Shown here one piece after another: positions 1 through 62,518 of a stretch of 64,000 nucleotides of DNA. Under the pieces are notes generated by a model that saw only the letters and a list, made by a program, of their open reading frames with translations, searched no databases and was not told where the DNA came from. Positions within the stretch are counted from its first letter, which is position 1. Every line of letters starts with the position of its first letter. The stretch is from Halobacteriovorax marinus (lineage in GTDB: Bacteria > Bdellovibrionota > Bacteriovoracia > Bacteriovoracales > Bacteriovoracaceae). The position numbers and the translations under genes are program-made. Location: NCBI GenBank assembly GCA_002163155.1, contig MAAO01000005.1, positions 167,874 to 231,873 of the forward strand, given 5' to 3'.

Positions 1-476
1 TCACTCTCATCTTCATCAACTATTTTTAATTGAAAAACGGCCTTTTGAAGTTCAGGTAATTTACCCATACACTCTTCAATAATATCAAGGCCTTGATTGG
101 AGCTCAAAATCCCTTCAGGATCCCCAGGAAGTCCTTCCTTCCAGTGTCCATCAGAAGAAAACTTACTCTCCATAATATCTTCTATAGGGTCAGTCTTGGA
201 ATATTTGAGATTACTTCTGCGAAGCTCACTCACTTTATTATAGAAAATTCCAAAGAGAAAAGTTCGAATATGACTGCGACCTTCAAACTTATGAACTACA
301 TCAAAGAAGGTTAACCAAGCTGAGTGAGTTACATCATGGGATTGTTCTTCGGAGAGACCTACTCCCAGCGCCGCTTTAAACAGATGTCCTGTATAAGCGC
401 GAACAATCAAATCGAAACTCTGGGAATCTCCCTCTCTCAATGATTGAATAAAATCTTTTGAACTAAAGTTGTTCAT
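1..476 (-). CDS. ECF RNA polymerase sigma factor (partial; runs off the window start; ECF13/ECF293-like)
   Basis: Not in the ORF track. Manual translation from ATG at 476 gives MNNFSSKDFIQSLREGDSQSFDLIVRAYTGHLFKAALGVGLSEEQSHDVTHSAWLTFFDVVHKFEGRSHIRTFLFGIFYNKVSELRR...FSSDGHW...IIEECMGKLPELQKAVFQLK. It has sigma region 2 (FEGRS.I.TFLFGI..NK) and the start of region 4. No stop before base 1. Confidence 0.88.
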   Translation of the reverse strand, partial: MNNFSSKDFIQSLREGDSQSFDLIVRAYTGHLFKAALGVGLSEEQSHDVTHSAWLTFFDVVHKFEGRSHIRTFLFGIFYNKVSELRRSNLKYSKTDPIEDIMESKFSSDGHWKEGLPGDPEGILSSNQGLDIIEECMGKLPELQKAVFQLKIVDEDES

Positions 477-667
477 TAAAGTGGCCCATATACTAGTTTG
501 TCGAATTCACATTTCTAGAAATTTTCTTTAGAATTAAAATTACACTTATACTAATGGATAAAGCTTTGAAATTCTAGGGTCTTGCCTAGTATTTTTCTTT
601 GGCCTGCAACATTTTTGTAACATAAAATAGCTAAACGACACTTACTTATAACTAAAGAGGACTATAT

Positions 668-1744
668 ATGACTAAAGGCACAAATTGTTGTGATACAGCT
701 GACACAACAAAAGACGAAGTAAAAGAATATTACGGAAAGACTCTTCAACATAGCGATGACTTAAAGACTAATGCTTGTTGTACTGGAGATATCTATCCAG
801 CCTACGTCAAAGATGCCATGAAACTCATTCACGATGAAGTGATGCAGAAGTACTATGGTTGTGGTCTGACTATTCCCCACTCACTAAGAGGAAAACGCGT
901 GCTCGACCTTGGTAGTGGCGCGGGAAGAGATTGCTACCTACTCTCAAAGCTTGTGGGAGAAGAAGGTGAAGTTATCGGTGTTGATATGACTGATGAACAA
1001 CTAGACGTTGCTAATCGTCACCTTGATTATCACACAGAGAAATTTGGTTATAAGAAATCTAATACTAGATTTATCAAAGGCGATATTGAAAAACTCAATG
1101 AGATCAATCTAGAAGATAATTACTTTGATGTCATCGTTTCAAATTGTGTGATCAATTTAGCGACAGATAAAGAAGCTGTAATGAGAGAAGTTTATAGAGT
1201 TTTAAAACCAGGGGGGGAAATATACTTCTCTGATGTTTACTCTGACAGAAGAGTTCCAAAAGAACTCGTAAAAGATCCTGTTCTCTACGGAGAATGTTTA
1301 AGTGGAGCGCTATACTGGAACGACTTTATTAATCTCTCTAAGAAAGTAGGGTTTCACGATCCAAGAAATGTTGAATCAGAAGTGATCACAATTCAAAACA
1401 CTGAACTCCAAGAAAAAGTGGGAGATATAAAATTCTTCTCAGTGACTTATCGTCTCTTTAAAATTGCAGAACTAGAACCAAGTTGTGAAGACTTCGGTCA
1501 ATCTGTGATCTACAAGGGAACTATTGCTGAGACTCCAGAGTCTTTTCAATTGGACGAACACCATTTGATCAAAAAGGGTGAAGAATTTAAAGTCTGTGGA
1601 AATACTTTTCTCATGTTAAATCAATCAAGATTTAAAGAGCATTTTGAATTCAAAGGTGACATGAAAACTCATCTAGGAATCTTTGAAGATTGTGGTGAAA
1701 GTGCCCCTTTCTCAGAAGACTCTAAGAAATCAAGCTGCTGTTAA
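668..1744 (+). CDS. arsM: Arsenite S-adenosylmethionine methyltransferase (ArsM/AS3MT-like)
   Basis: SAM motif VLDLGSGAGRD. All four conserved ArsM/AS3MT Cys contexts are present (TNACC, KYYGCG, VSNCVINL, YGECLSGALYW), plus an AS3MT-like C-terminal domain. Confidence 0.92.
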   Translation: MTKGTNCCDTADTTKDEVKEYYGKTLQHSDDLKTNACCTGDIYPAYVKDAMKLIHDEVMQKYYGCGLTIPHSLRGKRVLDLGSGAGRDCYLLSKLVGEEGEVIGVDMTDEQLDVANRHLDYHTEKFGYKKSNTRFIKGDIEKLNEINLEDNYFDVIVSNCVINLATDKEAVMREVYRVLKPGGEIYFSDVYSDRRVPKELVKDPVLYGECLSGALYWNDFINLSKKVGFHDPRNVESEVITIQNTELQEKVGDIKFFSVTYRLFKIAELEPSCEDFGQSVIYKGTIAETPESFQLDEHHLIKKGEEFKVCGNTFLMLNQSRFKEHFEFKGDMKTHLGIFEDCGESAPFSEDSKKSSCC

Positions 1745-1752
1745 GGAAAACT

Positions 1753-2496
1753 ATGAGGTGGATTCTTCTTCTCACATTTCTTCTTTCAACCAATGCCTTG
1801 GGCTTTGATCATACTCACAGCGAGTGGCAAAAAGTTTTAACGAAGTATGTAAAGATTGAGAATTCACAGTCCCTCATTAACTACAATTTATTAAAGAAAG
1901 AAAAACAACTTCTTAACAATTATTTACAGTCTCTTAGTTCTGTCAAAAAGGCAGAATACAAGTCCTGGGAATCATCAAAGAAGCTCGCTTTCTTAATCAA
2001 TGCCTATAATGCCTTTACCATTGAGCTCATTCTCACAAACTACCCTTTAAAATCAATCAAAGATCTAGGTTCACTCTTTAAGAGTGCCTGGAAAATAAGT
2101 TTCTTCACTCTCCTAGAAGAAAAACATCATCTAGATTGGATCGAGCAAGATATGATTCGCGGGAATTTTAAAGAACCAAGAATTCACTTCGCTGTTGTTT
2201 GTGCCAGTATAAGTTGTCCCAATCTACAAAAGAAGGCCTTCACATTTAAGAATCTAGATGCTCAACTAGAAACTGCGGCCCATGAATTTTTAAACGACCG
2301 CAGCAAGAATTACTTTGACGGAGAGAAGCTCTATATCTCGAAAATTTTTGGTTGGTATAAGAAAGATTTTAAGAACTTCCGAAAATTTATCTCTAAACGA
2401 ATGAGCAAAAATAAATCAATCCAAGAGAAAATTCAAAACCCTAAACTATCAGTGAAACAGCTAAATTATAACTGGCAACTAAACGAGTGGAAATGA
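1753..2496 (+). CDS. Secreted DUF547 domain protein
   Basis: Signal peptide; LAFLINAYNAFTI and EPRIHFAVVCASISCP motifs typical of DUF547; YNWQLN C-terminus. Confidence 0.88.
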   Translation: MRWILLLTFLLSTNALGFDHTHSEWQKVLTKYVKIENSQSLINYNLLKKEKQLLNNYLQSLSSVKKAEYKSWESSKKLAFLINAYNAFTIELILTNYPLKSIKDLGSLFKSAWKISFFTLLEEKHHLDWIEQDMIRGNFKEPRIHFAVVCASISCPNLQKKAFTFKNLDAQLETAAHEFLNDRSKNYFDGEKLYISKIFGWYKKDFKNFRKFISKRMSKNKSIQEKIQNPKLSVKQLNYNWQLNEWK

Positions 2497-3422
2497 CAGC
2501 TTACAAGAAATGGGAAAACCTTTATACGACTGCTAAAAATGATGAACGAGGAAAAGTCCCCTTCACTCATTTAAAGACACTGTGGTTTAACACGGGAACA
2601 CTATGCAACCTTGCCTGCGAGAATTGCTATATTGAATCAAATCCCAAGAATGATCGTCTAACCTATCTCTCCCTAGCTGACGTCACCCCTTATCTAGCAG
2701 AGATAAGAGAAAACCAGTGGCAATTAGATAATATTGCTTTCACAGGTGGAGAACCTTTTTTAAATCCCGCTATTATAGATATTCTTGAAGCCAGCCTTAA
2801 ATTAAATATTCCAGTCCTAGTTCTCACTAATGCCCATAAAGTTATTAAGAGATGGGAGAAGAAGTTATTGGCACTGCATGAGAAATACGGAGACCTACTA
2901 CGTCTGCGCGTGTCGCTAGATCACTACACTAGTGCTGTTCATGAACAGGAACGAGGAGAAAACACTTTTGACTCCACCATGGGAACATTTAAGTGGTTAG
3001 TAGAAAATGGATTCAATATGAGTATCGCCGGCAGATCACTCACAAAGGAATCAAGTGAAAAGGCCTCTGCTGGTTATCAAAAACTGTTAGATGACTTAAA
3101 CATAAAGCTACAATTAACTGATCAGAAACTCGTTGTATTTCCAGAAATGAAACCTCAAGAAGATGTTCCAGAAATTTCAATCAACTGTTGGCAAATTCTA
3201 GGAATCTCACCTAAAGATCAAATGTGCTCAACTGAGAGAATGATAGTAAAGAGAAAGGGTCAAGACAAACCTGTGGTCCTCTCATGCACGCTCATTGCTT
3301 ACGATGAAACTTTTGAATTAGGTCATACCTTGAAAGAATCATTTAAAGATGTTCATCTGAATCACCCATTTTGCGCAAAATTCTGTGTTCTAGGTGGGGC
3401 CAGTTGCTCAAGTACAAGTTAA
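2493..3422 (+). CDS. Radical SAM protein with Cys-rich C-terminus (ArsS-related)
   Basis: CxxxCxxC (CNLACENC), FTGGEPF, C-terminal NHPFCAKFCVLGGASC. ATG at 2493 overlaps the DUF547 stop (ATGA); the ORF track starts at GTG 2487. Confidence 0.88.
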   Translation: MTAYKKWENLYTTAKNDERGKVPFTHLKTLWFNTGTLCNLACENCYIESNPKNDRLTYLSLADVTPYLAEIRENQWQLDNIAFTGGEPFLNPAIIDILEASLKLNIPVLVLTNAHKVIKRWEKKLLALHEKYGDLLRLRVSLDHYTSAVHEQERGENTFDSTMGTFKWLVENGFNMSIAGRSLTKESSEKASAGYQKLLDDLNIKLQLTDQKLVVFPEMKPQEDVPEISINCWQILGISPKDQMCSTERMIVKRKGQDKPVVLSCTLIAYDETFELGHTLKESFKDVHLNHPFCAKFCVLGGASCSSTS

Positions 3423-3511
3423 ACTGACAGAAAAAGAGAGAATTTGTAAGTATACTCCCCATTGATCCTCCGATATCATTTTTAAGTTATCAAATTTTCA
3501 AGGAGGAAAGT

Positions 3512-4270
3512 ATGCTAATCAAAACTGCGGCGCTCATCGCTGTATCAGGTCTAATGACTATTTCATCTTACGCTAGTGATAAATCAATCTGTGGTGCTAA
3601 TGATGACAGAATGCCATCAACAAATCCAAAAATTGCAAGAGCTCTAGATTCAAGAACAGGAAGTGGTGGTTGTACAGTGACTATGATTAGTCGTACATGT
3701 GCTATCTCTGCTGGTCATTGTAAATCAGTTTTAAAAGTAGCTGAATTCAATACTCCAATGTCTAATAGAAGAGGAAATATTCAACATCCAAAAGCTTCTG
3801 ATGTTTACGATATTGATCAAACTTCAATAGTTTATAAGAATGGTGGAATTGGAAACGATTACGCTGTTATGAGAGTACTTCCTAACAATGAAACTGGTCT
3901 ATTTGCTGGTGACGTTCAAGGATTCTACAATGTAGCAAGCGAAGCTCCAGTTAAAGGTGACATCATCAGAATTACAGGTTACGGACTGGACAGAAACGAT
4001 AGAATCAGAAACCTAGCGCAACAAACGCATACAGGTGCGATTGTAATGGCAGGATCAAGATCAAATCCTTCGGCCATGAATCACGTTGCTGATACAATGG
4101 GTGGAAACTCTGGTTCATCAATCTTAAATGAAGCGACTGATGAAATCGTTGCTATTCATACTCACGGAGGTTGTTCTTCAAGAGGTGGATCTAACTCATC
4201 TACGCTTATTGCTGGTCACCAGATTTTTCAAGATGCAATTGCAGCTTGTCTAGCTACTGATTCACAATAG
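3512..4270 (+). CDS. Secreted trypsin-like serine protease
   Basis: Signal peptide; catalytic triad motifs SAGHC, NDYAV and GGNSGS; GGAGG Shine-Dalgarno. Confidence 0.9.
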   Translation: MLIKTAALIAVSGLMTISSYASDKSICGANDDRMPSTNPKIARALDSRTGSGGCTVTMISRTCAISAGHCKSVLKVAEFNTPMSNRRGNIQHPKASDVYDIDQTSIVYKNGGIGNDYAVMRVLPNNETGLFAGDVQGFYNVASEAPVKGDIIRITGYGLDRNDRIRNLAQQTHTGAIVMAGSRSNPSAMNHVADTMGGNSGSSILNEATDEIVAIHTHGGCSSRGGSNSSTLIAGHQIFQDAIAACLATDSQ

Positions 4271-4304
4271 TTAAAAATCTAAATTTCAAAATTTCAAAAT
4301 ATCT

Positions 4305-4337
4305 AAAGGCCGTGTTTTATACACGGCCTTTTTTTTT
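4305..4337 (+). terminator. Intrinsic terminator after the serine protease
   Basis: Stem AAAGGCCGTGT / ACACGGCCTTT with a TTTAT loop, followed by a T run. Confidence 0.85.
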
Positions 4338-4420
4338 ACATGTCTTTTACATAACTCATATTGAACAACAGTATTTGCCATGATCAAATATTTACTCAAC
4401 AAAATATCGGGAGAAGAAAT

Positions 4421-4717
4421 ATGAAAATTCTATTAGCACTACTTATTTCAGTAAACACAATGGCACTTGACTACAAAGTTGTTTGCGACGCAAAAGGTCA
4501 TTCAGGGGATTCTGTAGTAGCGGCCATAGAAGCTTGTTCTAAGCACACGACAAATAGACGTGCTAACTGCGCTAAGGATGTAACTTGTGCGACTTACAAG
4601 ACACACTGTACTTCTTATGGTGTTGCTGGAGATAATGTTCTCTTAGCTGTGGCAAACTGTAGACAGTATTCAAGAAACTCTACCAGAAATTGTTCAGCTG
4701 AAGTGACTTGTCACTAA
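4421..4717 (+). CDS. Small secreted Cys-rich protein with two internal repeats
   Basis: ATG at 4421 after GGGAGA; signal peptide MKILLALLISVNTMA; two ~37-aa repeats with 4 Cys each. The ORF track start at 4361 is probably too far upstream. Confidence 0.7.
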   Translation: MKILLALLISVNTMALDYKVVCDAKGHSGDSVVAAIEACSKHTTNRRANCAKDVTCATYKTHCTSYGVAGDNVLLAVANCRQYSRNSTRNCSAEVTCH

Positions 4718-4732
4718 GTAGAAAAATACAAA

Positions 4733-4758
4733 TAAAAAAGGCTCCTTTCGGAGCCTTT
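4733..4758. terminator. Probably bidirectional terminator between convergent genes
   Basis: AAAGGCTCC-TTTC-GGAGCCTTT. The upstream A run gives a U tail on the minus strand (rplT); TTT follows on the plus strand. Confidence 0.8.
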
Positions 4759-4789
4759 GCTTTCAATTATTTTTCAATTAATTTATAAA

Positions 4790-5137
4790 TTATTTTTTTG
4801 CTGATTCAAAGATGATTTTGAATGAATCAAAATCAGTCGCTGCAATTTCAGCAAGCATTTTTCTATTTATTTCACAACCAGTTTTCTTAAGGTTACCCAT
4901 GAATTTAGAGTATGAACCATCAAGTTGTTTTGCCGCAGCAGAAATTCTTGTAATCCATAGTCTTCTCATATCTCTCTTTAGAAGTTTTCTTCCAACATAA
5001 GAATAAGCTAGTGCTCTCTTAACAGTATCAGCTGTTAATTTGTATTTAGTTCTTCTTGAAAAGTGAAAACCTTTTGCAAGTTTAGCGATTTTGTTTCTTC
5101 TTCTACGGGCTTTAAAACCCCTTCTAACTCTAGACAT
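4790..5137 (-). CDS. rplT: 50S ribosomal protein L20
   Basis: MSRVRRG..ARRRRNKI..LAKGF, R..MRRLWITRISAA and INRKMLAEIA motifs; follows rpmI. Confidence 0.97.
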   Translation of the reverse strand: MSRVRRGFKARRRRNKIAKLAKGFHFSRRTKYKLTADTVKRALAYSYVGRKLLKRDMRRLWITRISAAAKQLDGSYSKFMGNLKKTGCEINRKMLAEIAATDFDSFKIIFESAKK

Positions 5138-5236
5138 ATAATCTCCTTAACGATTACTTGGGGGCCATTGCTCTTCTACTTCACTTTAGTGAGTATCTTG
5201 TCCCAAGCCTCAGTCTTGTTTATAATAATGATTTAA

Positions 5237-5434
5237 TTAAGCGTAAGGCAACATTACTTTTACACGTCCAAGATCACTCTTAGCAACGTAGTCAGTCTTT
5301 CCTGCTCTTTTCTTTGCACTTGTTTGTTTTTTCTCAAGAATGTGTCTTAAGTTTGCTCTTTTTCTTTTAAATTTACCATTACCAACAGCTTTAAATCTCT
5401 TTGCTGCTGATCTTTTGGTCTTCATCTTAGGCAT
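5237..5434 (-). CDS. rpmI: 50S ribosomal protein L35
   Basis: [15 protein letters not shown]...HILEKK...MLPY. Confidence 0.97.
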
Positions 5435-5500
5435 CGCTAAATCTCCTGTGATTTCACCTACGGCATAAGCCGTGTATCAAACTAATAATTGAAGCAGCAT

Positions 5501-5529
5501 TTTATAACAATTTTATATAGCTTTGTAAA
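5501..5529 (-). promoter_or_regulatory. Sigma70-like promoter for rpmI-rplT
   Basis: Minus strand TTTACA-17 nt-TATAAA, with a TGn extended -10. Confidence 0.55.
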
Positions 5530-5551
5530 AGGAATAATTGAGATAATTGAA

Positions 5552-5585
5552 GAAAAAATAGGGACTTAACGCAGGCGTAAGTCCC
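5552..5585 (-). terminator. Intrinsic terminator after infC
   Basis: Hairpin GGGACTTA(A)CGC / GCGTAAGTCCC (5561-5585), followed on the minus strand by TATTTTTTCT. Confidence 0.7.
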
Positions 5586-5602
5586 GTAACATATTGAAAT
5601 TA

Positions 5603-6187
5603 CTATTTAGTTATTGGAGCATTAACAATAATTTTACCAGCTTTAGTTTTTCTGATTGGAGCCACGATAGTAATAATTCTATTACCCATCATTTTTGGTT
5701 GAGATTCAATCTGAGCACCAAATTCTTCAACTTTAGCCAGAATATCTCTAAACTTCTTAAGGCCTAGATCTTTATAGGCCATTTCACGACCTCTAAACTG
5801 CATAACCATTTTGATTTTGTCACCTTGTTCTAAAAACTTCTCAGCTCTATTAAGCTTAGTTTCAAGATCGTGAGCTTCAATATTTGGTCTAAATTGTATC
5901 TCTTTAAGAGCAGATTGAACCTGCTTCTTTTTTTGTTCATTTGCTAGTTTTTGTTGATCATATTTAAATTTACCGTAGTCGATAACTTTAACAACAGGCG
6001 GTTTAGCCGTTGGCGAAACTTCTACGAGATCAAGCCCTTGATCATTAGCGATCTCTCTAGCTTTTTGCAATGTCACAAGCCCGTAAGCTTCTCCATCGTC
6101 ACCAATTAGTCTACATTCAGGAATACGAATTTGATCGTTAATACGAGGACCAAGATTCTTTCTTCCTCCGCGACGCTTGTCTTTAAT
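5603..6187 (-). CDS. infC: Translation initiation factor IF-3 (AUU start)
   Basis: DLVEVSP.AKPPVVKVIDYGKFKY and KEIQFRP motifs. The frame is open upstream of the track start (6076) to ATT at 6187, which sits 3 nt after GGAGGTGA and restores PRINDQIRIPECRLIG. Confidence 0.95.
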   Translation of the reverse strand: MKDKRRGGRKNLGPRINDQIRIPECRLIGDDGEAYGLVTLQKAREIANDQGLDLVEVSPTAKPPVVKVIDYGKFKYDQQKLANEQKKKQVQSALKEIQFRPNIEAHDLETKLNRAEKFLEQGDKIKMVMQFRGREMAYKDLGLKKFRDILAKVEEFGAQIESQPKMMGNRIITIVAPIRKTKAGKIIVNAPITK

Positions 6188-6300
6188 AAATCACCTCCAG
6201 ATGAAAATATGTTTCGCATAAGCATATGAAATATCATGCCGCTACGAATAGTTAAAGCGAAATTTCCTACAATTTTCGCCTATTTTTTATAATTAATCAA

Positions 6301-6735
6301 CTATTCCCAGAATTGGAGGGCAAAAGTTGAGTTATTCTTAACGTTAATTTTAACTCTCCATGTCGAATCAAATGGATTTTCATCGCGAATTTCCTGCTCT
6401 AATTTAAATAGCTCGTGGAAATTCAGACTCTCTGGCCCATCAAAACTATGGATTTCGCCCCTATCAAAGTCCTTAGTCGCAAGACCCAGATCCTCAATTA
6501 GATCTAACGGAGAGAATCCTATAACTTCCCTACCAACCCAACAAGAGGTGCTCGTAAACAGCTCCTCATCAAGGCTTGAAGCAAAGAAATAGATATAGCT
6601 ATTACCATTGGCCCTCGTTAATTTCTGAGATTGTTCTATAAAGGAATCCACCTTGACAAGACTTGCTACAAAATCAAATTCTTTCATGGAAGTTTCATCA
6701 AATATTAAACGACTATTACCTATTATTGTTTTCAC
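6301..6735 (-). CDS. Hypothetical protein
   Basis: 144-aa ORF coupled to the CDF gene (1-nt stop/start overlap); no motif recognised. Confidence 0.6.
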   Translation of the reverse strand: MKTIIGNSRLIFDETSMKEFDFVASLVKVDSFIEQSQKLTRANGNSYIYFFASSLDEELFTSTSCWVGREVIGFSPLDLIEDLGLATKDFDRGEIHSFDGPESLNFHELFKLEQEIRDENPFDSTWRVKINVKNNSTFALQFWE

Positions 6736-7628
6736 TAATCTTCTGTCCCATCAGGTTCAATATGAATTAAGATATCCACTTCGTTAGAGTATTCCTTTAG
6801 TAGCTCTCGCATTTTCGCTTCAACGATTTTCCCAACTTCATGGGCCTTAATGAGAGACAGAGTTGGCTCGAGATGCAAGTGAAAGTCTACTTGCATATAA
6901 TTCATATTCCCTCTCGCCCTAAAACGGTGGATATCATAGACAAACTCTATGTTCTCTACGGATTTAATTAAGGGCTCTTCAACTACAGGAGAGGCATCTA
7001 ACATTTCAGGAATATTCGTCTTAAAAATTTTAAAAGCGAGGTAGAAGAGATAGACACATACCACTCCTCCAAAAATTATATCTGGAAAGAGAAATCCGAA
7101 GTAAGAAAGAATAATTGAAAGTAAGACACCAAAACTAATAATAAAATCACCAAATGTATGGTCAGCGTCAGCTTTTAGAAGTGATGAATTTAACTCTCTT
7201 CCCTTCTTTCCCTCATACCAAGAGACAAAGAAGCTCACTATCATGGAAATGATAATACTTAAAAGAGGAACAATACCAAAGACAGCATGTTCACCAGAGC
7301 CCGTACGCACTTCTTGCCACTCAAGAGAAACTTGAACAGCTGAGAAAATAAGCACGATACCAATAATGATACTTCCAAGAGTTTCAAATTTGTGATGCCC
7401 AAAATTATGGCCTTTATCAGCAGGTTTAGAGGCAAGGGTAATAGAAATGAGGGCCAAAATATTGGCTCCTCCATCAAAGAGAGATTCTATCCCAGAAGAT
7501 TTAAGAGAGAGATAACTATATTGAACCCCAGCGGCAATTTTAATTATCGCTACGAACCAATTAAGCCCCATTGTAATAAAGAGAACTTTTCTTATTTGAG
7601 CTTCGCGCTCAGCTAAGAAATTATTCAT
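6735..7628 (-). CDS. Cation diffusion facilitator family transporter (FieF-like)
   Basis: SGIESLFD, HNFGHHKFE, LKADADHTFGD motifs; transmembrane helices; C-terminal AHEV...DILIHIEP. Confidence 0.92.
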   Translation of the reverse strand: MNNFLAEREAQIRKVLFITMGLNWFVAIIKIAAGVQYSYLSLKSSGIESLFDGGANILALISITLASKPADKGHNFGHHKFETLGSIIIGIVLIFSAVQVSLEWQEVRTGSGEHAVFGIVPLLSIIISMIVSFFVSWYEGKKGRELNSSLLKADADHTFGDFIISFGVLLSIILSYFGFLFPDIIFGGVVCVYLFYLAFKIFKTNIPEMLDASPVVEEPLIKSVENIEFVYDIHRFRARGNMNYMQVDFHLHLEPTLSLIKAHEVGKIVEAKMRELLKEYSNEVDILIHIEPDGTED

Positions 7629-9415
7629 GCGTCAGACCGCAAGTTAAATCTTCGAAGTTCTAATAATAGATTTTCAAAGTTATCAATATTGTCTTTAAGA
7701 ACTTGGGTCTTTGCAACTTTAATAGAACCAGATTCATTCACTACAATTTGCTCGTGTTGAAAGTACTTCATACTATTCTTCATCAGAGGTTCAGAATTAG
7801 ATTCTGGAAATTTTACCACAACCCCTAATTGCTTCTCTTCTGTATGAACTTCTACGTACTTCTTTGAGTAATCATCAAACTTAAATCCATCAGGATGGAG
7901 TTCGTTTAAAGACCTAAGCGCCACAGCACTAGTATAGTAGGCTTCAATAATATAATTAAATGATCTTGAGAACGCTCCTAAACTAGAGGCAATAGTATAG
8001 AGTTCCTTATGAGAGAGCTCTAGGCATTGTTCAAGAGAAGTAATTTCTCTTCCTGTAATATTCGACAGGAGAAAGAAAGTTTTTTCCATGAAATCTTTAA
8101 TCGTTGGCAGGTAGAACTCATGTTTTAAAAGTCTTCTATGCTCTAAGAATATTTTTTTAAGATCGTGAACACTTTCAATTCTTCCACTAAATAGGTTTAT
8201 CCACGCATAGTTTATAACCCATGGAATTAAGAAGTGGTGAAGGATAGTATTTTTAAAGTAGAGAACTTCTTGTCTACATTCATCTTTAATAGTGTAGAAA
8301 GTATGGCTTCTAGTGCTCTTCCCAATGACTTCAATTCTCTTATTTCCGATCATGATATCTAGGGCACGCCCTAAACTATCTTCAAGTTTTCCCACCTTCA
8401 TCGAATCAGTATAAGGAATATTATAGGTTTCACAAAACTCAATAATCTGCTTTCCTTTAGAAAGAATATCACTCCACTCAAGGGCCCCAGCAGGTTCGTC
8501 CAAGAGAATTAAACTTATGACCGAAGAAGGTGTGACATGCATATTAGCGCCGACATTTCTAAAACATTCAAATGCTAAATTCTGAACATCTTCTTTTAGA
8601 GTCTCTTCACTCGTTTTCTCACCTTTTACAGGTGTTCCAAGATTGATGTGAACAGAGCCGAATTGATAACTAAATAATTTGACCAGTCCAAATAATTGTC
8701 CCGTACTTTCTTTCGATTTCTTAGCACCATGTAATTCTTTGGCAAGAGTCTTTTGTTCCGGAACATACTCATGAACAATACTTACAGGAACAAAAACAAG
8801 ATCTTTCTTTTTCTCTTTAGGAAGATGACTGTGGGCCTCAAATAACATTTGATACAGTCCATACTTAGGAGGCAGGAGTTTTCCTGTCCTTGACCTTCCA
8901 CCTTCAAAGAAAAATTCAATCGGCTTTTGATTCATGAGTAAGTAGAAGAGATAGGCTTCTAATGTCGTCTTGTAGAGAACATCGTGGGCAAAAGATCTTC
9001 TAATAAAGAAACATCCTGATTTTCTAAAGAGTTTTCCAATAGGAAAAATATTTAGATTATTTCCACCTGCAACGTAGAGAGGAAATCCATATTTCTTAAA
9101 GACCATATAATTAATGGCCACATAATCAGCATGAGATTGGTGATTTGGAACTAGAACAACAGAGTTTTCTTTAACAAGATTTTTAAAGTCCACTCCATTT
9201 TCGTTGAAATTAACACCATCGTATAATTTAGGTAGTGTTGAATCTAATAATTTTTGAAATGTTTTAATATAGGGTTTAGAAAATTCGGCCCTAATTTCTT
9301 TTAGGATCTTTAGGGCCTTTTCTTTTTCGGCCTTAGAGTCTTCTCTTCCGTCAATTCGTTCTTTTAATTTCGGGTAAGATAAAACAATTTTTTCTTGGCT
9401 ATTAAAGAGATTCAT
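7625..9415 (-). CDS. plsB: Glycerol-3-phosphate acyltransferase (PlsB-like)
   Basis: PNHQSHADY (HxxxxD), GCFFIRR, FFEGGRSRTG and VPVSIVHE acyltransferase blocks. Confidence 0.8.
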   Translation of the reverse strand: MNLFNSQEKIVLSYPKLKERIDGREDSKAEKEKALKILKEIRAEFSKPYIKTFQKLLDSTLPKLYDGVNFNENGVDFKNLVKENSVVLVPNHQSHADYVAINYMVFKKYGFPLYVAGGNNLNIFPIGKLFRKSGCFFIRRSFAHDVLYKTTLEAYLFYLLMNQKPIEFFFEGGRSRTGKLLPPKYGLYQMLFEAHSHLPKEKKKDLVFVPVSIVHEYVPEQKTLAKELHGAKKSKESTGQLFGLVKLFSYQFGSVHINLGTPVKGEKTSEETLKEDVQNLAFECFRNVGANMHVTPSSVISLILLDEPAGALEWSDILSKGKQIIEFCETYNIPYTDSMKVGKLEDSLGRALDIMIGNKRIEVIGKSTRSHTFYTIKDECRQEVLYFKNTILHHFLIPWVINYAWINLFSGRIESVHDLKKIFLEHRRLLKHEFYLPTIKDFMEKTFFLLSNITGREITSLEQCLELSHKELYTIASSLGAFSRSFNYIIEAYYTSAVALRSLNELHPDGFKFDDYSKKYVEVHTEEKQLGVVVKFPESNSEPLMKNSMKYFQHEQIVVNESGSIKVAKTQVLKDNIDNFENLLLELRRFNLRSDA

Positions 9416-10633: not shown

Positions 10634-12208
10634 CTATCTAAGCATAAATAAATTAAAGCTATGAGAGCGAATTTTTCTAAGTCCTATGATCATATCAGAG
10701 TAGAGCAAATCTTCAGACTCAAGAGAAAAGCGAAGGGATTCACAGTTCTCTTTTAATTTTTGTGAAACTTTTCTTTGCCCAGCAATAGTTGTTGCAGGAG
10801 GAGTTGTTCCAAGGTTTTCACAACAAGTTTCATAGAAGACATTAACTTCAGCAAAGAGCTTGTTGATTGAAGTGAGCTTGTCCTGTGACAACTTATGAGC
10901 ATGAACTAGCTTGGTTTTATGAGTTACAAATTTATTGATGTAGTCAGCTATATTTTCAAATTCACTGGCCACATTTAATAGAGATGTACACTCCTTAGTC
11001 TGAGCAGGGTTAAGAGAGTTTTCCAGCAGTCCATGGATAAAATACTTCATCTCATCATTGATATTATCAGTGATATCTTCATACTTTTTTATTTTAGCAA
11101 GATCTCTTGAACTCCCCTCTATAGCATGCATATAGATAGAGGCCCTAGAAAACATCTTATCTACAAGACTTTTCATTTTCTTCATTTCTCTATGCGCCTG
11201 CCATAGTGACGTAGCTGGAACCATTTGGTTTGCCGCACCGAAGAAAATAAGTTTTTGTGGAATTTTCACTTCGGGTGAGCGAATGAGCCTAAGAATAGCT
11301 TTTCTAATAAATTTAAAAAAGAGAAAAGAGATAAATACATTTATTAAATTAATACCTGAATAGAATATGGGAAGGACAAATTGAGTTCCTACTAGCTCTT
11401 CAATGACTAAGAAATACGAACTAAAGAAGTGCAAAAATATAAGTGCGACAGGTATTGAAATTGAATTTAGAATAATATTAAAAAGTGCAGCCCTCTGCCC
11501 TTCAATATTTCCTCTTTTAGAGTTGAAATAAAGTCTAAGACTTGGTCCTAGAGTAGCTCCGACTAGCACTGCACATGAGAGTTCTACCGAGATATTGTGA
11601 GTGTAGAAGAAGGCCATGAATAGGCCAATCAGTATGGCGGTACTATTTAGTAGATAAGATACAATAAAACCACTTAACAGAGCGAGAACCAGAAAGAAAA
11701 AACTTGCTTGCTGAAGAGACTCGATATTTAAGAGGGAATCTGATGAGAAGAAAATGATACTTAAGTTCAATCCCAAGTAAAGGAAACCAATCCCCAAGAT
11801 CACCCGTGAGAAGAGTTTAACAAATAGATTTCTAATAAAGTAATGCCCAATGGATCCAATAAATAAGAGTAGATATGACCAATTTCCAAGATCAAAAGTT
11901 AAAAGCCATGGAAAGACCGAAGCTCCTAAATTCACACCCATTATATAAAGAGCTGATATATAGAAGCTAACAATACCCGAGTTCACTAATCCCACAATCA
12001 AGTTGGTACAGGAAGAAACACTTAGAACACTTGCACCACTGAGCAGCCCCACAAGAAGTGAGTTCTTAGCAGTGATTTCTGTTTTTGCATTTATTCCTCT
12101 TAGAAGTTCTCCAGAGAGCGCTTGCATAGAGAGCACAAGGAAATTAATAGAGAATATGAAAAGTGCAATTCCGCCTAAAATTGGCCACATTTGATTTATT
12201 GAAAACAT
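10634..12208 (-). CDS. Na/Pi cotransporter family protein with PhoU-like C-terminus
   Basis: LGGIALFIFSI, IMGVNLGAS and LVGATLG repeats; C-terminal KYEDITDNI and FENIADY PhoU-type helices. Confidence 0.85.
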   Translation of the reverse strand: MFSINQMWPILGGIALFIFSINFLVLSMQALSGELLRGINAKTEITAKNSLLVGLLSGASVLSVSSCTNLIVGLVNSGIVSFYISALYIMGVNLGASVFPWLLTFDLGNWSYLLLFIGSIGHYFIRNLFVKLFSRVILGIGFLYLGLNLSIIFFSSDSLLNIESLQQASFFFLVLALLSGFIVSYLLNSTAILIGLFMAFFYTHNISVELSCAVLVGATLGPSLRLYFNSKRGNIEGQRAALFNIILNSISIPVALIFLHFFSSYFLVIEELVGTQFVLPIFYSGINLINVFISFLFFKFIRKAILRLIRSPEVKIPQKLIFFGAANQMVPATSLWQAHREMKKMKSLVDKMFSRASIYMHAIEGSSRDLAKIKKYEDITDNINDEMKYFIHGLLENSLNPAQTKECTSLLNVASEFENIADYINKFVTHKTKLVHAHKLSQDKLTSINKLFAEVNVFYETCCENLGTTPPATTIAGQRKVSQKLKENCESLRFSLESEDLLYSDMIIGLRKIRSHSFNLFMLR

Positions 12209-42195: not shown

Positions 42196-42564
42196 ATGAG
42201 TGATAAAATTGTTCTTATTGTGGATGACGAAGAGAAGTTAGTTGAACTGACGGCCGATCTGATTGAGGCGATGGGACATGAAGTTGAAGTGCACACAAGT
42301 TCAGAGAAAGCGCTAGTTTCATTTTGCGCCAATCCACAGAACTATAAACTTGTTATCACTGACCACACAATGCCAGGCCTTTCGGGGGTAGATCTCATTT
42401 TAAAAATTCGTGAATATTCTTTGGATATTCCCTGCATTCTCACTACAGGAGCAGTGCTTAGTGAGGTTGAAGAGCTTTTTAGTGCTGATCCTAATTTAAC
42501 ATATTTGAAAAAACCTTATAGAAGAGCAAATCTACAAGAACTTCTCGAGAAATATACCTCCTAA
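42196..42564 (+). CDS. Single-domain response regulator
   Basis: VLIVDDE, VITDHTMPGLSG, LTTG, KKPY. Confidence 0.9.
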   Translation: MSDKIVLIVDDEEKLVELTADLIEAMGHEVEVHTSSEKALVSFCANPQNYKLVITDHTMPGLSGVDLILKIREYSLDIPCILTTGAVLSEVEELFSADPNLTYLKKPYRRANLQELLEKYTS

Positions 42565-59902: not shown

Positions 59903-60286
59903 TTAAGAATTTACCTTAAACGCCTCCAAAATGGTTTCACACAGATCATCTCCATCAAAAGGTTTTTGAATAAATTTATATATTTCTAAATTCTCAGTTC
60001 TCTTAATAGTTTCAGGATCGCCGTGGGCAGAGAGAAATATTATAGGGTTTTTAAAACCTTCTTCTTGCACTTCCCGCACAAAAGTTATTCCATTCATTCT
60101 CGGCATATTTATATCTGATACGATACAATCAAACTCATGCTCACTAACAGCTTGTTTACCTTCAATTCCATTGATGACTGTGATAATTTCACTCACAGAA
60201 GCAACCCCACCATCTTGTAAGATATCAATGATAATTTCTAATAAATCCTCTTCATCATCAAGAATCAATAATTTATACTTCTTCAT
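59903..60286 (-). CDS. Single-domain response regulator
   Basis: LILDDE, VSDINMPRMNG, LSAHG, QKPF; overlaps the kinase stop. Confidence 0.9.
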   Translation of the reverse strand: MKKYKLLILDDEEDLLEIIIDILQDGGVASVSEIITVINGIEGKQAVSEHEFDCIVSDINMPRMNGITFVREVQEEGFKNPIIFLSAHGDPETIKRTENLEIYKFIQKPFDGDDLCETILEAFKVNS

Positions 60287-61403
60287 TCTCTACCTTCTCT
60301 GTATCTAGCTTCTTTGGTAAAACGATTTTAAAACATGTATTTGGAGACTTACTATCATAAGTTAAACTACCCCCATGGGATTCAATTAAACCTTTAGAAA
60401 TACTCAGTCCTAGACCTGTCCCCTTTCCTATATCTTTAGTGGTGTAAAATGGTTCAAAGAGACGCACCTGTACTTCAAAGGGAATGCCCTTTCCTGAATC
60501 TAAAATAGAGATTAAATACTGATCCTCACTTTCCGCTACAATAACCTTAACCCACTTTATCTGTTCTTCTTGAACGGAATCAAGGGAATTGTTAACTAAG
60601 TTTAATAAGACTTGTAGTAATTGTGTTTCACGCCCCATTAACTCTTGTTTTTCATTTAAACCCTCGAGTGAGAAAACGGTATTACTCATTGAGAGTTTTT
60701 GTTCTGAGAGATCTTTTAAACTATCAAAGATATCGAACAATTTTATTTTCTCAATAGGTACGTGTTCATCTTTACGACTAATTGATCTAAGCGATTTAAT
60801 TATTTTTGTAATTCGATCAAAGTTCTTTTTTATTTTCTCCGTAATCTGCAAAGACTTTTGCGTATCACCATCAATTTTCCGTATGCTTTTTTCAAGCATA
60901 TTTAACTGCCCCGTAATAATTGTAATGGGATTATTTATTTCATGAGCAATACTAGTCGCCATTTCACCAAGAGAGACAAGTTTATTTGTGTGCATGAGTT
61001 GCATCTGGTTTCTCTTCTGTTCTCGCATATCTGCTAAGAGCAAAAGTATGTAATCTTCTTCTTGAAAGAAGTTTTTTAGAATACAAGAAGAGATAACAAG
61101 AGTCTCTATAGGAGGCTCACCTTCGACTGTATTTATATTTAATTCAAGGGATTTTTCCTTCTCAGTTAAAAGCAATAGATCAAAGAGATTAAGAGGTGTC
61201 GCATCATTTTTAAAAAAATAGTCATAGTACTGTGAATTAGTGAAAGTTTCTTTAACAATATTCGTCTTATCATATAAGCTATCGCTGGTGAGAAGAACTT
61301 TTCCATCAAAACCAATGATGAGAAGAAAATTTTCCATTGTATGGATAAGTTCCAAGGTCCCCTGACCTTTTTCTTTTAAATGTTCTAACAGTTCCTGATC
61401 CAT
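60273..61403 (-). CDS. Cytoplasmic PAS-like sensor histidine kinase (NtrB type)
   Basis: LGEMATSIAHEINNP, QVLLNLVNN, DSGKGI, FEPFYTTK..GKGTGLGL; no TM segment. Confidence 0.92.
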   Translation of the reverse strand: MDQELLEHLKEKGQGTLELIHTMENFLLIIGFDGKVLLTSDSLYDKTNIVKETFTNSQYYDYFFKNDATPLNLFDLLLLTEKEKSLELNINTVEGEPPIETLVISSCILKNFFQEEDYILLLLADMREQKRNQMQLMHTNKLVSLGEMATSIAHEINNPITIITGQLNMLEKSIRKIDGDTQKSLQITEKIKKNFDRITKIIKSLRSISRKDEHVPIEKIKLFDIFDSLKDLSEQKLSMSNTVFSLEGLNEKQELMGRETQLLQVLLNLVNNSLDSVQEEQIKWVKVIVAESEDQYLISILDSGKGIPFEVQVRLFEPFYTTKDIGKGTGLGLSISKGLIESHGGSLTYDSKSPNTCFKIVLPKKLDTEKVENEEV

Positions 61404-61537: not shown

Positions 61538-62113
61538 ATGAGAAAACCTGAAATAGACTATATTCAAAAGTTTTGTAGAGAGACTAGTTTACAGAGGTTT
61601 ATTGCTCACAGCTCTAACCAAGAAATCACATTAATTGAGAAAAACGCTGAGCAAGTGATGACTGGAAATATTTGGAGATGTGCCATACTGTGGGGTAATG
61701 ACGATATCCGTGGAGTGATGATAATAAATTTCACCACTATAAATATATTGGCCATGGCCAGTTCTGTATTTGAAAATACAAGAGATTCAGTTCTATTTGA
61801 GCATACTAAAGATTTCATGAAAGAATATTGTAATATGTATGCAGGTCTCTTAAAAGGAACCTTAAATAATAAAAACATTATTACTAATATAAGTTTACCT
61901 ATAATTTCAAAATCACTTACTAGTCATGCGTGCCTAGCAGGAGTGCCTGAAAATTCTTATAAAGATAATTGGAATTTAGTCTTGGGAAATTCTTTTATTG
62001 AACTAAGTAACACTTTAGTTTTATCTAAGAATTTTGATATAAGTTCACTATTATTTTTAAAAGATAGTGAAAAAGAAAGCTCATCAAATGATGGTGATAT
62101 AGAATTCTTTTAA
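61538..62113 (+). CDS. CheX-like phosphatase
   Basis: KEYCNMYAG (ExxN) and ISLP motifs; adjacent to a CheY-like gene. Confidence 0.7.
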   Translation: MRKPEIDYIQKFCRETSLQRFIAHSSNQEITLIEKNAEQVMTGNIWRCAILWGNDDIRGVMIINFTTINILAMASSVFENTRDSVLFEHTKDFMKEYCNMYAGLLKGTLNNKNIITNISLPIISKSLTSHACLAGVPENSYKDNWNLVLGNSFIELSNTLVLSKNFDISSLLFLKDSEKESSSNDGDIEFF

Positions 62114-62131: not shown

Positions 62132-62518
62132 ATGTCAAAGATATTAGTTGTAGATGATTCAATGGTCATTAGAAAAATGATAAAGAATAGCCTTCAAAAA
62201 GAAGGTCACGAAATTCATCAAGCAGAAAATGGACAAGAGGGATTTGAGTTATTTGCAGCACATTCATTTGATTTGATTATTACAGATATCAATATGCCTA
62301 TTATGAATGGTTTTGAGTTTTCAGAGAAAGTTCGCGCCAGCTCTGGAACCTCTTGTGACATTCCCATAATTGTCCTCTCTACAGAGTTTAGTGATGAAGT
62401 CAAAGAACGAGGTCGCAATATAGGAATTAACGCCTGGATGGTAAAACCTGCAGAAGAAGAGAAGCTCTTAAAAGCAGTGGCCTTTCTGATTGAGAATACA
62501 AAGATGAAGAGTGCTTAA
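62132..62518 (+). CDS. CheY-like response regulator
   Basis: ILVVDDS, ITDINMPIMNG, LSTE, WMVKP. Confidence 0.9.
   Translation: MSKILVVDDSMVIRKMIKNSLQKEGHEIHQAENGQEGFELFAAHSFDLIITDINMPIMNGFEFSEKVRASSGTSCDIPIIVLSTEFSDEVKERGRNIGINAWMVKPAEEEKLLKAVAFLIENTKMKSA

Follow-up and report, generated by a model that had tools for sequence, protein, structure and literature searches.

A candidate organoarsenical operon that pairs ArsM with an exported DUF547 protein and an unnamed radical SAM family

To our knowledge, only two families of radical SAM (S-adenosylmethionine) enzymes, ArsS and ArsL, form carbon-arsenic (C-As) bonds. ArsL is a noncanonical radical SAM enzyme which generates a 3-amino-3-carboxypropyl radical. 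ArsS adenosylates the trivalent dimethylarsenical DMAs(III) to 5'-deoxy-5'-dimethylarsinoyl-adenosine, DDMAA (PMC13598754), and SsArsS is reported to act together with SsArsM in arsenosugar synthesis (Xue 2019, as cited in PMC8552651). In the arsinothricin genes arsQML of Burkholderia gladioli, a gene of the ArsM methyltransferase family lies beside that of the C-As bond-forming ArsL, which bears a radical SAM annotation (PMC8552651; bioRxiv 10.1101/2024.02.01.577332). Here we describe a three-gene operon at positions 668-3422 of a stretch of 64,000 nucleotides of Halobacteriovorax DNA (contig MAAO01000005.1; "the window" means the whole of this 64-kb stretch), which couples arsM to a gene for an exported DUF547 protein and to a radical SAM gene. 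We consider it rather probable that this operon is an organoarsenical, that is C-As bond-forming, module which works like ArsM/ArsS with a different and unnamed family of radical SAM enzymes. Its gene context suggests biosynthesis rather than detoxification. What appears to be new is the family of the radical SAM enzyme and the recurrence of DUF547 as an exported partner.

The operon and its three proteins

In the list of open reading frames (ORFs) of the window, the three genes lie on the + strand and point in one direction:

668-1744, + strand: arsM, predicted As(III) S-adenosylmethionine methyltransferase of 358 aa (ArsM structure alignments, four Cys)
1753-2496, + strand: predicted exported DUF547 protein of 247 aa (PF04784, signal-peptide-like N-terminus)
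2493-3422, + strand: 309-aa radical SAM enzyme (counted from the ATG, with a GTG at 2487) whose ArsS-like family is unnamed (PF04055, CX3CX2C)

The gap between arsM and the DUF547 gene is 8 nt, and the DUF547 and radical SAM genes overlap in the ATGA at 2493-2496; these coordinates agree with the initial annotation, which had been made from the letters alone. Purine-rich motifs resembling ribosome-binding sites (AGAGGA, AAGGAAAA and GAGTGGAA) are found just 5' of the three starts.

The first protein aligns end to end with two solved enzymes, the arsenite methyltransferase CrArsM of Chlamydomonas (5evj; residues 20-356, E=4e-108) and CmArsM of Cyanidioschyzon (4fr0; residues 19-350, E=4e-91), and its three-domain architecture matches that of the solved ArsM structures. 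Cys37, Cys65, Cys160 and Cys210 fall on C44, C72, C174 and C224 of CmArsM. All four catalytic cysteines are kept, as had been noticed at the start, and gene 1 is, as judged from its sequence, an ArsM. The protein scores below every curated NCBIfam cutoff for ArsM: its best model is PRK11873 (186.5 against 263), and it reaches 167 bits against 500 on NF040538, the arsinothricin ArsM, and 100 against 400 on NF038099, the arsenosugar ArsM. The ArsM genes which stand beside genuine ArsS at two other loci (L088 and L173, described below) are also under the cutoffs. This means that the models are narrow, and not that the ArsM of the window is aberrant. We ruled out a clade of ArsM specific to pairing with the radical SAM enzyme, since Alkalimarinus and a tubeworm endosymbiont have solitary ArsM genes whose proteins are 64-66% identical to that of the window. 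Both termini of the window's ArsM carry pairs of cysteines, in NCCD (residues 6-9) and in SSCC at the very end, and these could be a motif for handing over arsenic. The ArsM part of P0449, a fusion protein described below, ends in SSCCC (residues 343-350) directly before the linker to its radical SAM part. We also note that P0258, a protein of 587 aa from a eukaryote, Plasmodiophora brassicae, ranks amid the top bacterial ArsM matches with 567 bits.

The second protein scores 88.7 bits on PF04784, against a gathering threshold of 27, and its N-terminus resembles a signal peptide (MRWILLLTFLLSTNALG followed by FDHTH), so that its first description as a secreted DUF547 protein was borne out. A hydrophobic signal peptide, an AxA-type site and then a conserved FDHxH are found in 37 of the 37 aligned homologues, and the family can therefore be predicted to be exported. 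In the homologue alignments, the pair C150-x4-C155, inside a CASxxCP motif, is invariant, as are H145, E131, N83/Y85/N86, W201 and D205. The AlphaFold2 model is confident (predicted local distance difference test, pLDDT, 95; predicted template-modelling score, pTM, 0.91). Foldseek gave no fold match to this model in the PDB (best E=1.5), and a sequence search of the PDB with the protein returned nothing relevant. In the literature searched, DUF547 is named only in lists of plant genes and as the domain at the C-terminal end of class IV glutaredoxins that are themselves uncharacterised (PMC13621322). We suggest with low confidence a periplasmic thiol-dependent protein that acts on an arsenical at the membrane's outer face, by binding it, reducing it or processing it further.

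The third protein matches PF04055 (Radical_SAM) with 61.5 bits and carries the cluster motif C38-x3-C42-x2-C45, as expected for the radical SAM enzyme first announced. Six further cysteines are present (232, 245, 265, 294, 298 and 305, the last three in the tail FCAKFCVLGGASCSS), and all nine are invariant over 166 sequences from many phyla. It had been proposed to compare this enzyme with the models of ArsS and ArsL, and of the two a match of the core to ArsS was obtained. On the ArsS model TIGR04167 it scores 62.1 bits against a cutoff of 300, over residues 27-183 only, while the ArsS of L088 and of L173, taken as controls, reach 441 and 459 bits. DUF3641 (PF12345) is not matched even at E<=10, against 184.5 bits for the ArsS of L088. 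The score under the cutoff and the absence of DUF3641 rule out that the enzyme is an ArsS. It is not an ArsL either, as no ArsL model is found among the 25 best NCBIfam matches (down to 25.5 bits) and no arsQ adjoins the gene. The best of these matches is the uncharacterised Rv1681 family (NF049973), with 84 bits against a cutoff of 380. It is the top model for each family member tested (80-105 bits, aligned over core residues 31-208 only), and we dropped it as a functional guide because the scores are far under the cutoff and the family is itself uncharacterised.

The likeness to genuine ArsS is of the following kind. As with ArsM/ArsS of Synechocystis, arsM is coupled to a radical SAM enzyme of about 300 aa with a canonical CX3CX2C, and the two cores are homologous: hhalign gives a probability of 97%, over residues 19-206 only, and BLASTP an identity of 27% (E=2e-10). 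After the cluster loop both enzymes show the motifs C(H/Y)(V/I)E(A/S)xP, TGG(A/E)P and SLxxYT...RGExxF, and both finish in a Cys-rich tail of the form C-x2/3-C-x6/7-C-S, which is HCYGCSAGAGSSCSG in ArsS and FCAKFCVLGGASCSS in the window. Unlike ArsS, the enzyme of the window lacks DUF3641, and its C-terminal half (about residues 180-309), with the six invariant cysteines, matches no Pfam or NCBIfam model. There is also no SPASM match in Pfam. The AlphaFold2 model has a pLDDT of 91, with low confidence for the final ten residues, and its closest PDB folds are SuiB, BlsE, anSME and SkfB (template-modelling, TM, scores 0.53-0.59). These are generic SPASM/twitch radical SAM enzymes, and the attempt to fix the chemistry by a fold match ended there. 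The family has at least 8000 clusters at 90% identity, of which all named ones bear generic names, and 297 representatives at 50% identity came out of the profile search (E<=1e-30). NCBIfam holds no model for it. Hence, by its sequence the enzyme is a member of a large, uniform and unnamed family, which the curated models place neither in ArsS nor in ArsL.

Neighbourhoods and fusions of the radical SAM family

We surveyed 160 loci of this family, 80 from species-representative genomes and 80 from metagenomes, and searched their ORFs (phmmer) with ArsM, DUF547, genuine ArsS, the two transferase families TIGR04282 and TIGR04283, which NCBI labels as "arsenosugar" transferases, and a MerA-like reductase. 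The initial annotation had held that its reading would fall if relatives of the radical SAM enzyme were not enriched next to arsM. We found arsM within 5 kb at 14 of the 160 loci (7/80 from genomes, 7/80 from metagenomes), against about 0.3% expected by chance, an estimate which supposes that arsM is one gene in several thousand and that a 10-kb span holds about ten. When only well-flanked loci are considered (at least 2.5 kb on either side), 19 of the 65 from genomes and 13 of the 29 from metagenomes have ArsM, DUF547, TIGR04282 or TIGR04283 within 5 kb. A neighbour-joining tree places the window in a non-alphaproteobacterial clade; of its 24 leaves, 15 have arsM alongside, the remainder being mostly short contigs; if this clade is restricted to its well-flanked loci, arsM is adjacent in about 10 of 14.

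The loci linked to arsM are labelled Deltaproteobacteria and Bacteriovoracaceae, Melioribacteraceae, Balneolaceae, Hyphomonadaceae and Novosphingobium, and they show at least four gene orders (arsM-DUF547-radical SAM, DUF547-DUF2064-arsM-radical SAM, arsM-radical SAM and radical SAM-arsM). The associations with the transferases and with the MerA-like reductase, which adjoins the radical SAM gene at 15 of the 160 loci, fall in alphaproteobacterial subclades. The DUF2064 neighbour passes TIGR04282 (190 against a cutoff of 134), and the neighbour of glycosyltransferase family 2 (GT2) scores 120 on TIGR04283, under the cutoff of 182. Genuine ArsS adjoins none of the 160 loci, whether from genomes or from metagenomes. 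Eleven of the 25 most frequent clusters of neighbours were identified, ten by representative sequences (four of these with NCBIfam) in addition to the ArsM cluster, and two further ones are antisense shadow ORFs; no known ars gene other than arsM occurs among the eleven.

A profile search over 1.84 billion representative proteins returned the following fusions of the family:

P0449, 654 aa: complete ArsM (46% identical to the ArsM of the window), then radical SAM (31% identical over its full length, Cys-rich C-terminus included)
P0409, 673 aa: radical SAM (35% identical), then ArsM (50% identical)
P0364, 512 aa: TIGR04282 (164 bits, cutoff 134) and radical SAM
P0361, P0362 and P0390, 551-618 aa: N-terminal calcineurin-like metallophosphoesterase and radical SAM
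P0369, 522 aa: radical SAM and C-terminal HD_3 (YfbR-like nucleotidase)

The cluster of P0409 contains a near-identical RefSeq protein of Deferribacter thermophilus (WP_423302845.1, 673 aa), which is annotated as a methyltransferase only. Fusions to ArsM in either domain order are strong evidence that both activities share one pathway.

The contexts of DUF547 point in the same direction. Homologues 47-49% identical to the protein of the window sit in two cassettes with genuine ArsS. In the first (L088, Candidatus Dadabacteria), DUF547 lies with ArsS (441 bits), ArsM and a glycosyltransferase of the TIGR04283 type (175 bits). The second (L173, 1-12669) has a PNP-type nucleoside phosphorylase, ArsM, ArsS (459 bits), a DedA-MerA-like fusion and a glutaredoxin, together with a PHO4 transporter, a GT2 resembling polyprenyl-phosphate-hexose synthases, a GT-C of the MptA/B family and three DUF547 paralogues of 268, 781 and 316 aa. 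The content of this cassette hints that arsenosugar-type products are bound to a lipid carrier while they are handled at the membrane's outer face. ArsM, DUF547, TIGR04282 and TIGR04283 are thus partners common to ArsS and to relatives of the window's enzyme. Since DUF547 and ArsM pair either with ArsS or with the window-type radical SAM enzyme, the latter occupies the position of ArsS. It is from this coupling to ArsM and to transferases that the family would work in the manner of ArsS, to which it does not belong. Elsewhere DUF547 is found with DedA and MerA-like reductases only, no ars genes being present (L086, L172), or alone (L087), or, on an Acidobacteriota contig (L171), beside a Na/Pi cotransporter and PhoU (6771-8565), with a GT2 gene in divergent orientation. 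A DedA (VTT) protein and a MerA/lipoamide-dehydrogenase-like flavin adenine dinucleotide (FAD) disulfide reductase adjoin DUF547 recurrently (L086, 3834-6873; L172, 3851-6783; L173, 3418-6807), and the two are fused in L172 and L173.

One may ask at this point whether the module is directed at arsenic at all, or at a different metalloid (Se, Sb or Te), in which case the ArsM-like enzyme would methylate metalloids in general. For the latter reading, TIGR04167 carries the name of a (seleno)protein family, and DUF547 is repeatedly paired with thiol/disulfide-type reductases and a glutaredoxin. We regard it as highly improbable, given that the ArsM keeps its four As(III)-binding and catalytic cysteines, that its nearest structures are arsenite methyltransferases, and that a transporter of the phosphate/arsenate type (PHO4) is present in the related cassette L173.

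The proposed pathway and its alternatives

In the organoarsenical module that we favour, ArsM would turn As(III) into methylated trivalent arsenicals, of which DMAs(III) is the most likely. The radical SAM enzyme would reductively cleave SAM at the [4Fe-4S] cluster held by CX3CX2C and, by analogy with ArsS, might join the 5'-deoxyadenosyl radical to arsenic at its lone pair, so that a product of the 5'-deoxy-5'-dimethylarsinoyl-adenosine type is formed. Its six extra cysteines, three of them in the flexible C-terminal tail, may hold an auxiliary Fe-S cluster, bind the arsenical coming from ArsM, or do both. The adenosyl-arsenical could later lose its adenine and be re-glycosylated, with which the PNP, HD_3, metallophosphoesterase and DUF2064 partners of related loci fit. 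The whole 64-kb window contains no TIGR04282 or TIGR04283, ArsS or MerA-like gene; without these transferases, the pathway would end at the adenosyl-arsenical or continue elsewhere in the genome. The operon differs in this from the ArsM/ArsS system, as it does by its host, a heterotrophic predator and not a cyanobacterium.

On two points the C-As module proposed at first needs correcting. The adjacency to arsM, the ArsM fusions and the links to TIGR04282 and TIGR04283 support that proposal, while the enzyme turned out to be neither ArsS nor ArsL and the coupling to arsM is not universal. Several further facts weigh against an organoarsenical module of the ArsS type. The reaction proposed for the family is so far assigned, for every member, by comparative genomics and fusions. 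The low score on TIGR04167 and the missing DUF3641 have been given above, and the core resembles ArsS little more than it does generic SPASM/twitch enzymes. The fused radical SAM domains are divergent, being 31-35% identical to the enzyme of the window. About 70% of the sampled family members, mostly from Alphaproteobacteria, have no arsenic-linked neighbour, and solitary ArsM at the 64-66% identity already mentioned occurs in Gammaproteobacteria. A periplasmic DUF547 fits poorly into a cytoplasmic pathway of two enzymes. Finally, the syntenic locus of H. marinus (L005) consists of sigma factor, DUF547, radical SAM and protease genes and lacks arsM, and no H. marinus protein is found among the best 120 ArsM matches listed.

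The proteins of the window share 70-79% identity with those of Halobacteriovorax, and its gene order is syntenic with H. marinus and H. sp. HLS, which agrees with the probable predatory bacterium of the initial annotation. The loci share the order sigma, [arsM] DUF547 radical SAM protease ... rplT rpmI infC, in which the presence of arsM varies. The full trio is present in Halobacteriovorax sp. HLS (L174) and in metagenome-assembled genomes or contigs labelled Bacteriovoracaceae or Deltaproteobacteria (L001, L007, L033), and this recurrence means that the arrangement is conserved and not due to chance. H. marinus and H. sp. HLS, without and with arsM, form a natural comparison pair.

The same variation can be read as the adjacency of two unrelated functions, a detoxifying ArsM having been inserted by a DUF547-radical SAM pair whose substrate is not arsenic, e.g. 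in the modification of the envelope or of a cofactor. Between H. marinus and H. sp. HLS, arsM behaves as an element that is gained or lost; most alphaproteobacterial members of the radical SAM family are solitary, close relatives of the ArsM are solitary elsewhere, and DUF547 occurs in L086, L087 and L172 where there is no ars gene. Such an insertion would account neither for ArsM-radical SAM fusions in either domain order, nor for arsM adjacency in several phyla with varied gene orders, nor for DUF547 within two genuine ArsS-ArsM cassettes, nor for the translational coupling of the three genes. We therefore hold it to be quite improbable.

If the module does act on arsenic, its chemistry may still not be that of ArsS. 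The enzyme might transfer a 3-amino-3-carboxypropyl group, as ArsL does, or a methyl group, take As(III) or the trivalent monomethylarsenical MAs(III) as substrate, or modify or cleave an organoarsenical, and so lead to a new class of products. Its unmodelled C-terminal half, unlike the DUF3641 of ArsS, would suit such a reaction, as would the lack of TIGR04282/04283 transferases in the window and the variety of fusion partners (metallophosphoesterase, HD_3). As in the ArsL/ArsM system, an ArsM gene neighbours a radical SAM gene; however there is no ArsQ-like permease beside the operon, no ArsL model among the best matches, and the ArsM fails the arsinothricin model NF040538. The canonical CX3CX2C and a predicted fold like SuiB, BlsE and anSME also speak against such a reaction, the enzyme takes the position of ArsS with the same partner families, and partners acting on nucleosides or nucleotides (the HD_3 fusion, the PNP-type phosphorylase of L173) suit an adenosyl product. 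A reaction of another kind thus appears unlikely to us, and formation of an adenosyl-arsenical remains the preferred reading.

A bolder proposal, which we find somewhat doubtful, is that the window-type radical SAM enzyme and DUF547 constitute, beside ArsS and ArsL, a third and so far unrecognised system for forming C-As bonds, widespread in heterotrophs and with a product distinct from the cyanobacterial intermediate. If this were true, it would concern Bdellovibrionota, Ignavibacteriota, Balneolaceae, many Alphaproteobacteria and Deferribacter, and one possible product is an arsenosugar, or an arsenolipid, whose handling takes place on the outer side of the membrane. DUF547 would in that case be a periplasmic thiol enzyme of new fold, working with DedA/MerA-like reductases and with glycosyltransferases of the polyprenyl-phosphate type. 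A third C-As family would make the synthesis of organoarsenicals far commoner in heterotrophic bacteria of sea and soil than one would expect from the cyanobacterial and algal paradigm, and would bear on the origin of arsenosugars, arsenolipids and downstream products in food webs. The contexts described here also place DUF547, which occurs from bacteria to plants (fused there to class IV glutaredoxins; PMC13621322), in a concrete functional context for the first time. In the literature searched, no paper connects DUF547 with enzymes of the radical SAM type; subscription journals may contain such a description.

Surroundings of the operon

Like a canonical ars operon (arsR-arsB/acr3-arsC, with or without arsM), the operon contains an ArsM with intact catalytic cysteines. 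It differs from it by its partners, the radical SAM enzyme and the exported DUF547 protein. The initial annotation had stated that no arsB, acr3, arsC or arsR lies in the window. This stands for the ORFs scanned with Pfam, among which none was found; they represent part of the window, namely ten small ORFs, 5 of the 7 ORFs predicted to have four or more membrane segments, and five further ORFs. The features around the operon are:

3-476, - strand: 5' part of a gene for a sigma factor of the extracytoplasmic function (ECF) type, running off the left end of the window (weak PF04542 Sigma70_r2, E=5e-4)
506-534, + strand: best promoter-like site 5' of arsM, TTCACA-17-TAGAAT, 10/12 matches (consensus match alone)
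3512-4270, + strand: secreted trypsin-like serine protease of 252 aa (PF00089, E=1e-8)
4305-4331, either strand: bidirectional terminator-like hairpin with an 11-bp stem and a T run, the first strong one downstream of the operon

The number of promoter-like sites is 19, when 14 are expected in shuffled sequences. There is no terminator-like hairpin within the operon or between 3422 and 3512, and the protease gene may be co-transcribed with the operon. As a downstream neighbour this protease is conserved in Halobacteriovorax only: a homologue is in the same place in L005 and L174, and the cassettes from other phyla have no counterpart. The divergent ECF-type sigma factor is possibly a dedicated regulator of the operon. 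A divergent sigma gene (PF08281) is found 5' of the operon in L005 (4618-5199) and in L174 (2510-3106), with a small gene of 82-97 aa, and an ECF sigma factor with an NrsF anti-sigma factor also flanks the unrelated ArsS cassette of Dadabacteria, L088 (sigma 4232-4810). The G+C content is uniform over the window (0.33-0.41), so that composition gives no sign of a recent import. Rfam gave no credible match to a riboswitch or known RNA in 1-6500, and the intergenic region 440-700 contains nothing remarkable in the way of repeats.

Further downstream, a gene at 4361-4717 (+) encodes a small secreted protein of 118 aa with no Pfam match, apparently made of two tandem repeats with four cysteines each (C...G.SGD.V..A...C......R.NC...VTC). 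It lies between two strong bidirectional terminator hairpins, that at 4305-4331 and another at 4737-4758. A Na+/Pi cotransporter-PhoU protein is encoded at 10634-12208 (-), 7 kb off the operon; phosphate transporters are entry routes for arsenate, and their nearness to the operon or to DUF547 is perhaps a coincidence. Near the right end of the window, several stand-alone receiver genes of the response-regulator type form a group with a histidine kinase gene and a CheX-like gene (42196-42564, 59903-60286, 60273-61403, 61538-62113 and 62132-62518).

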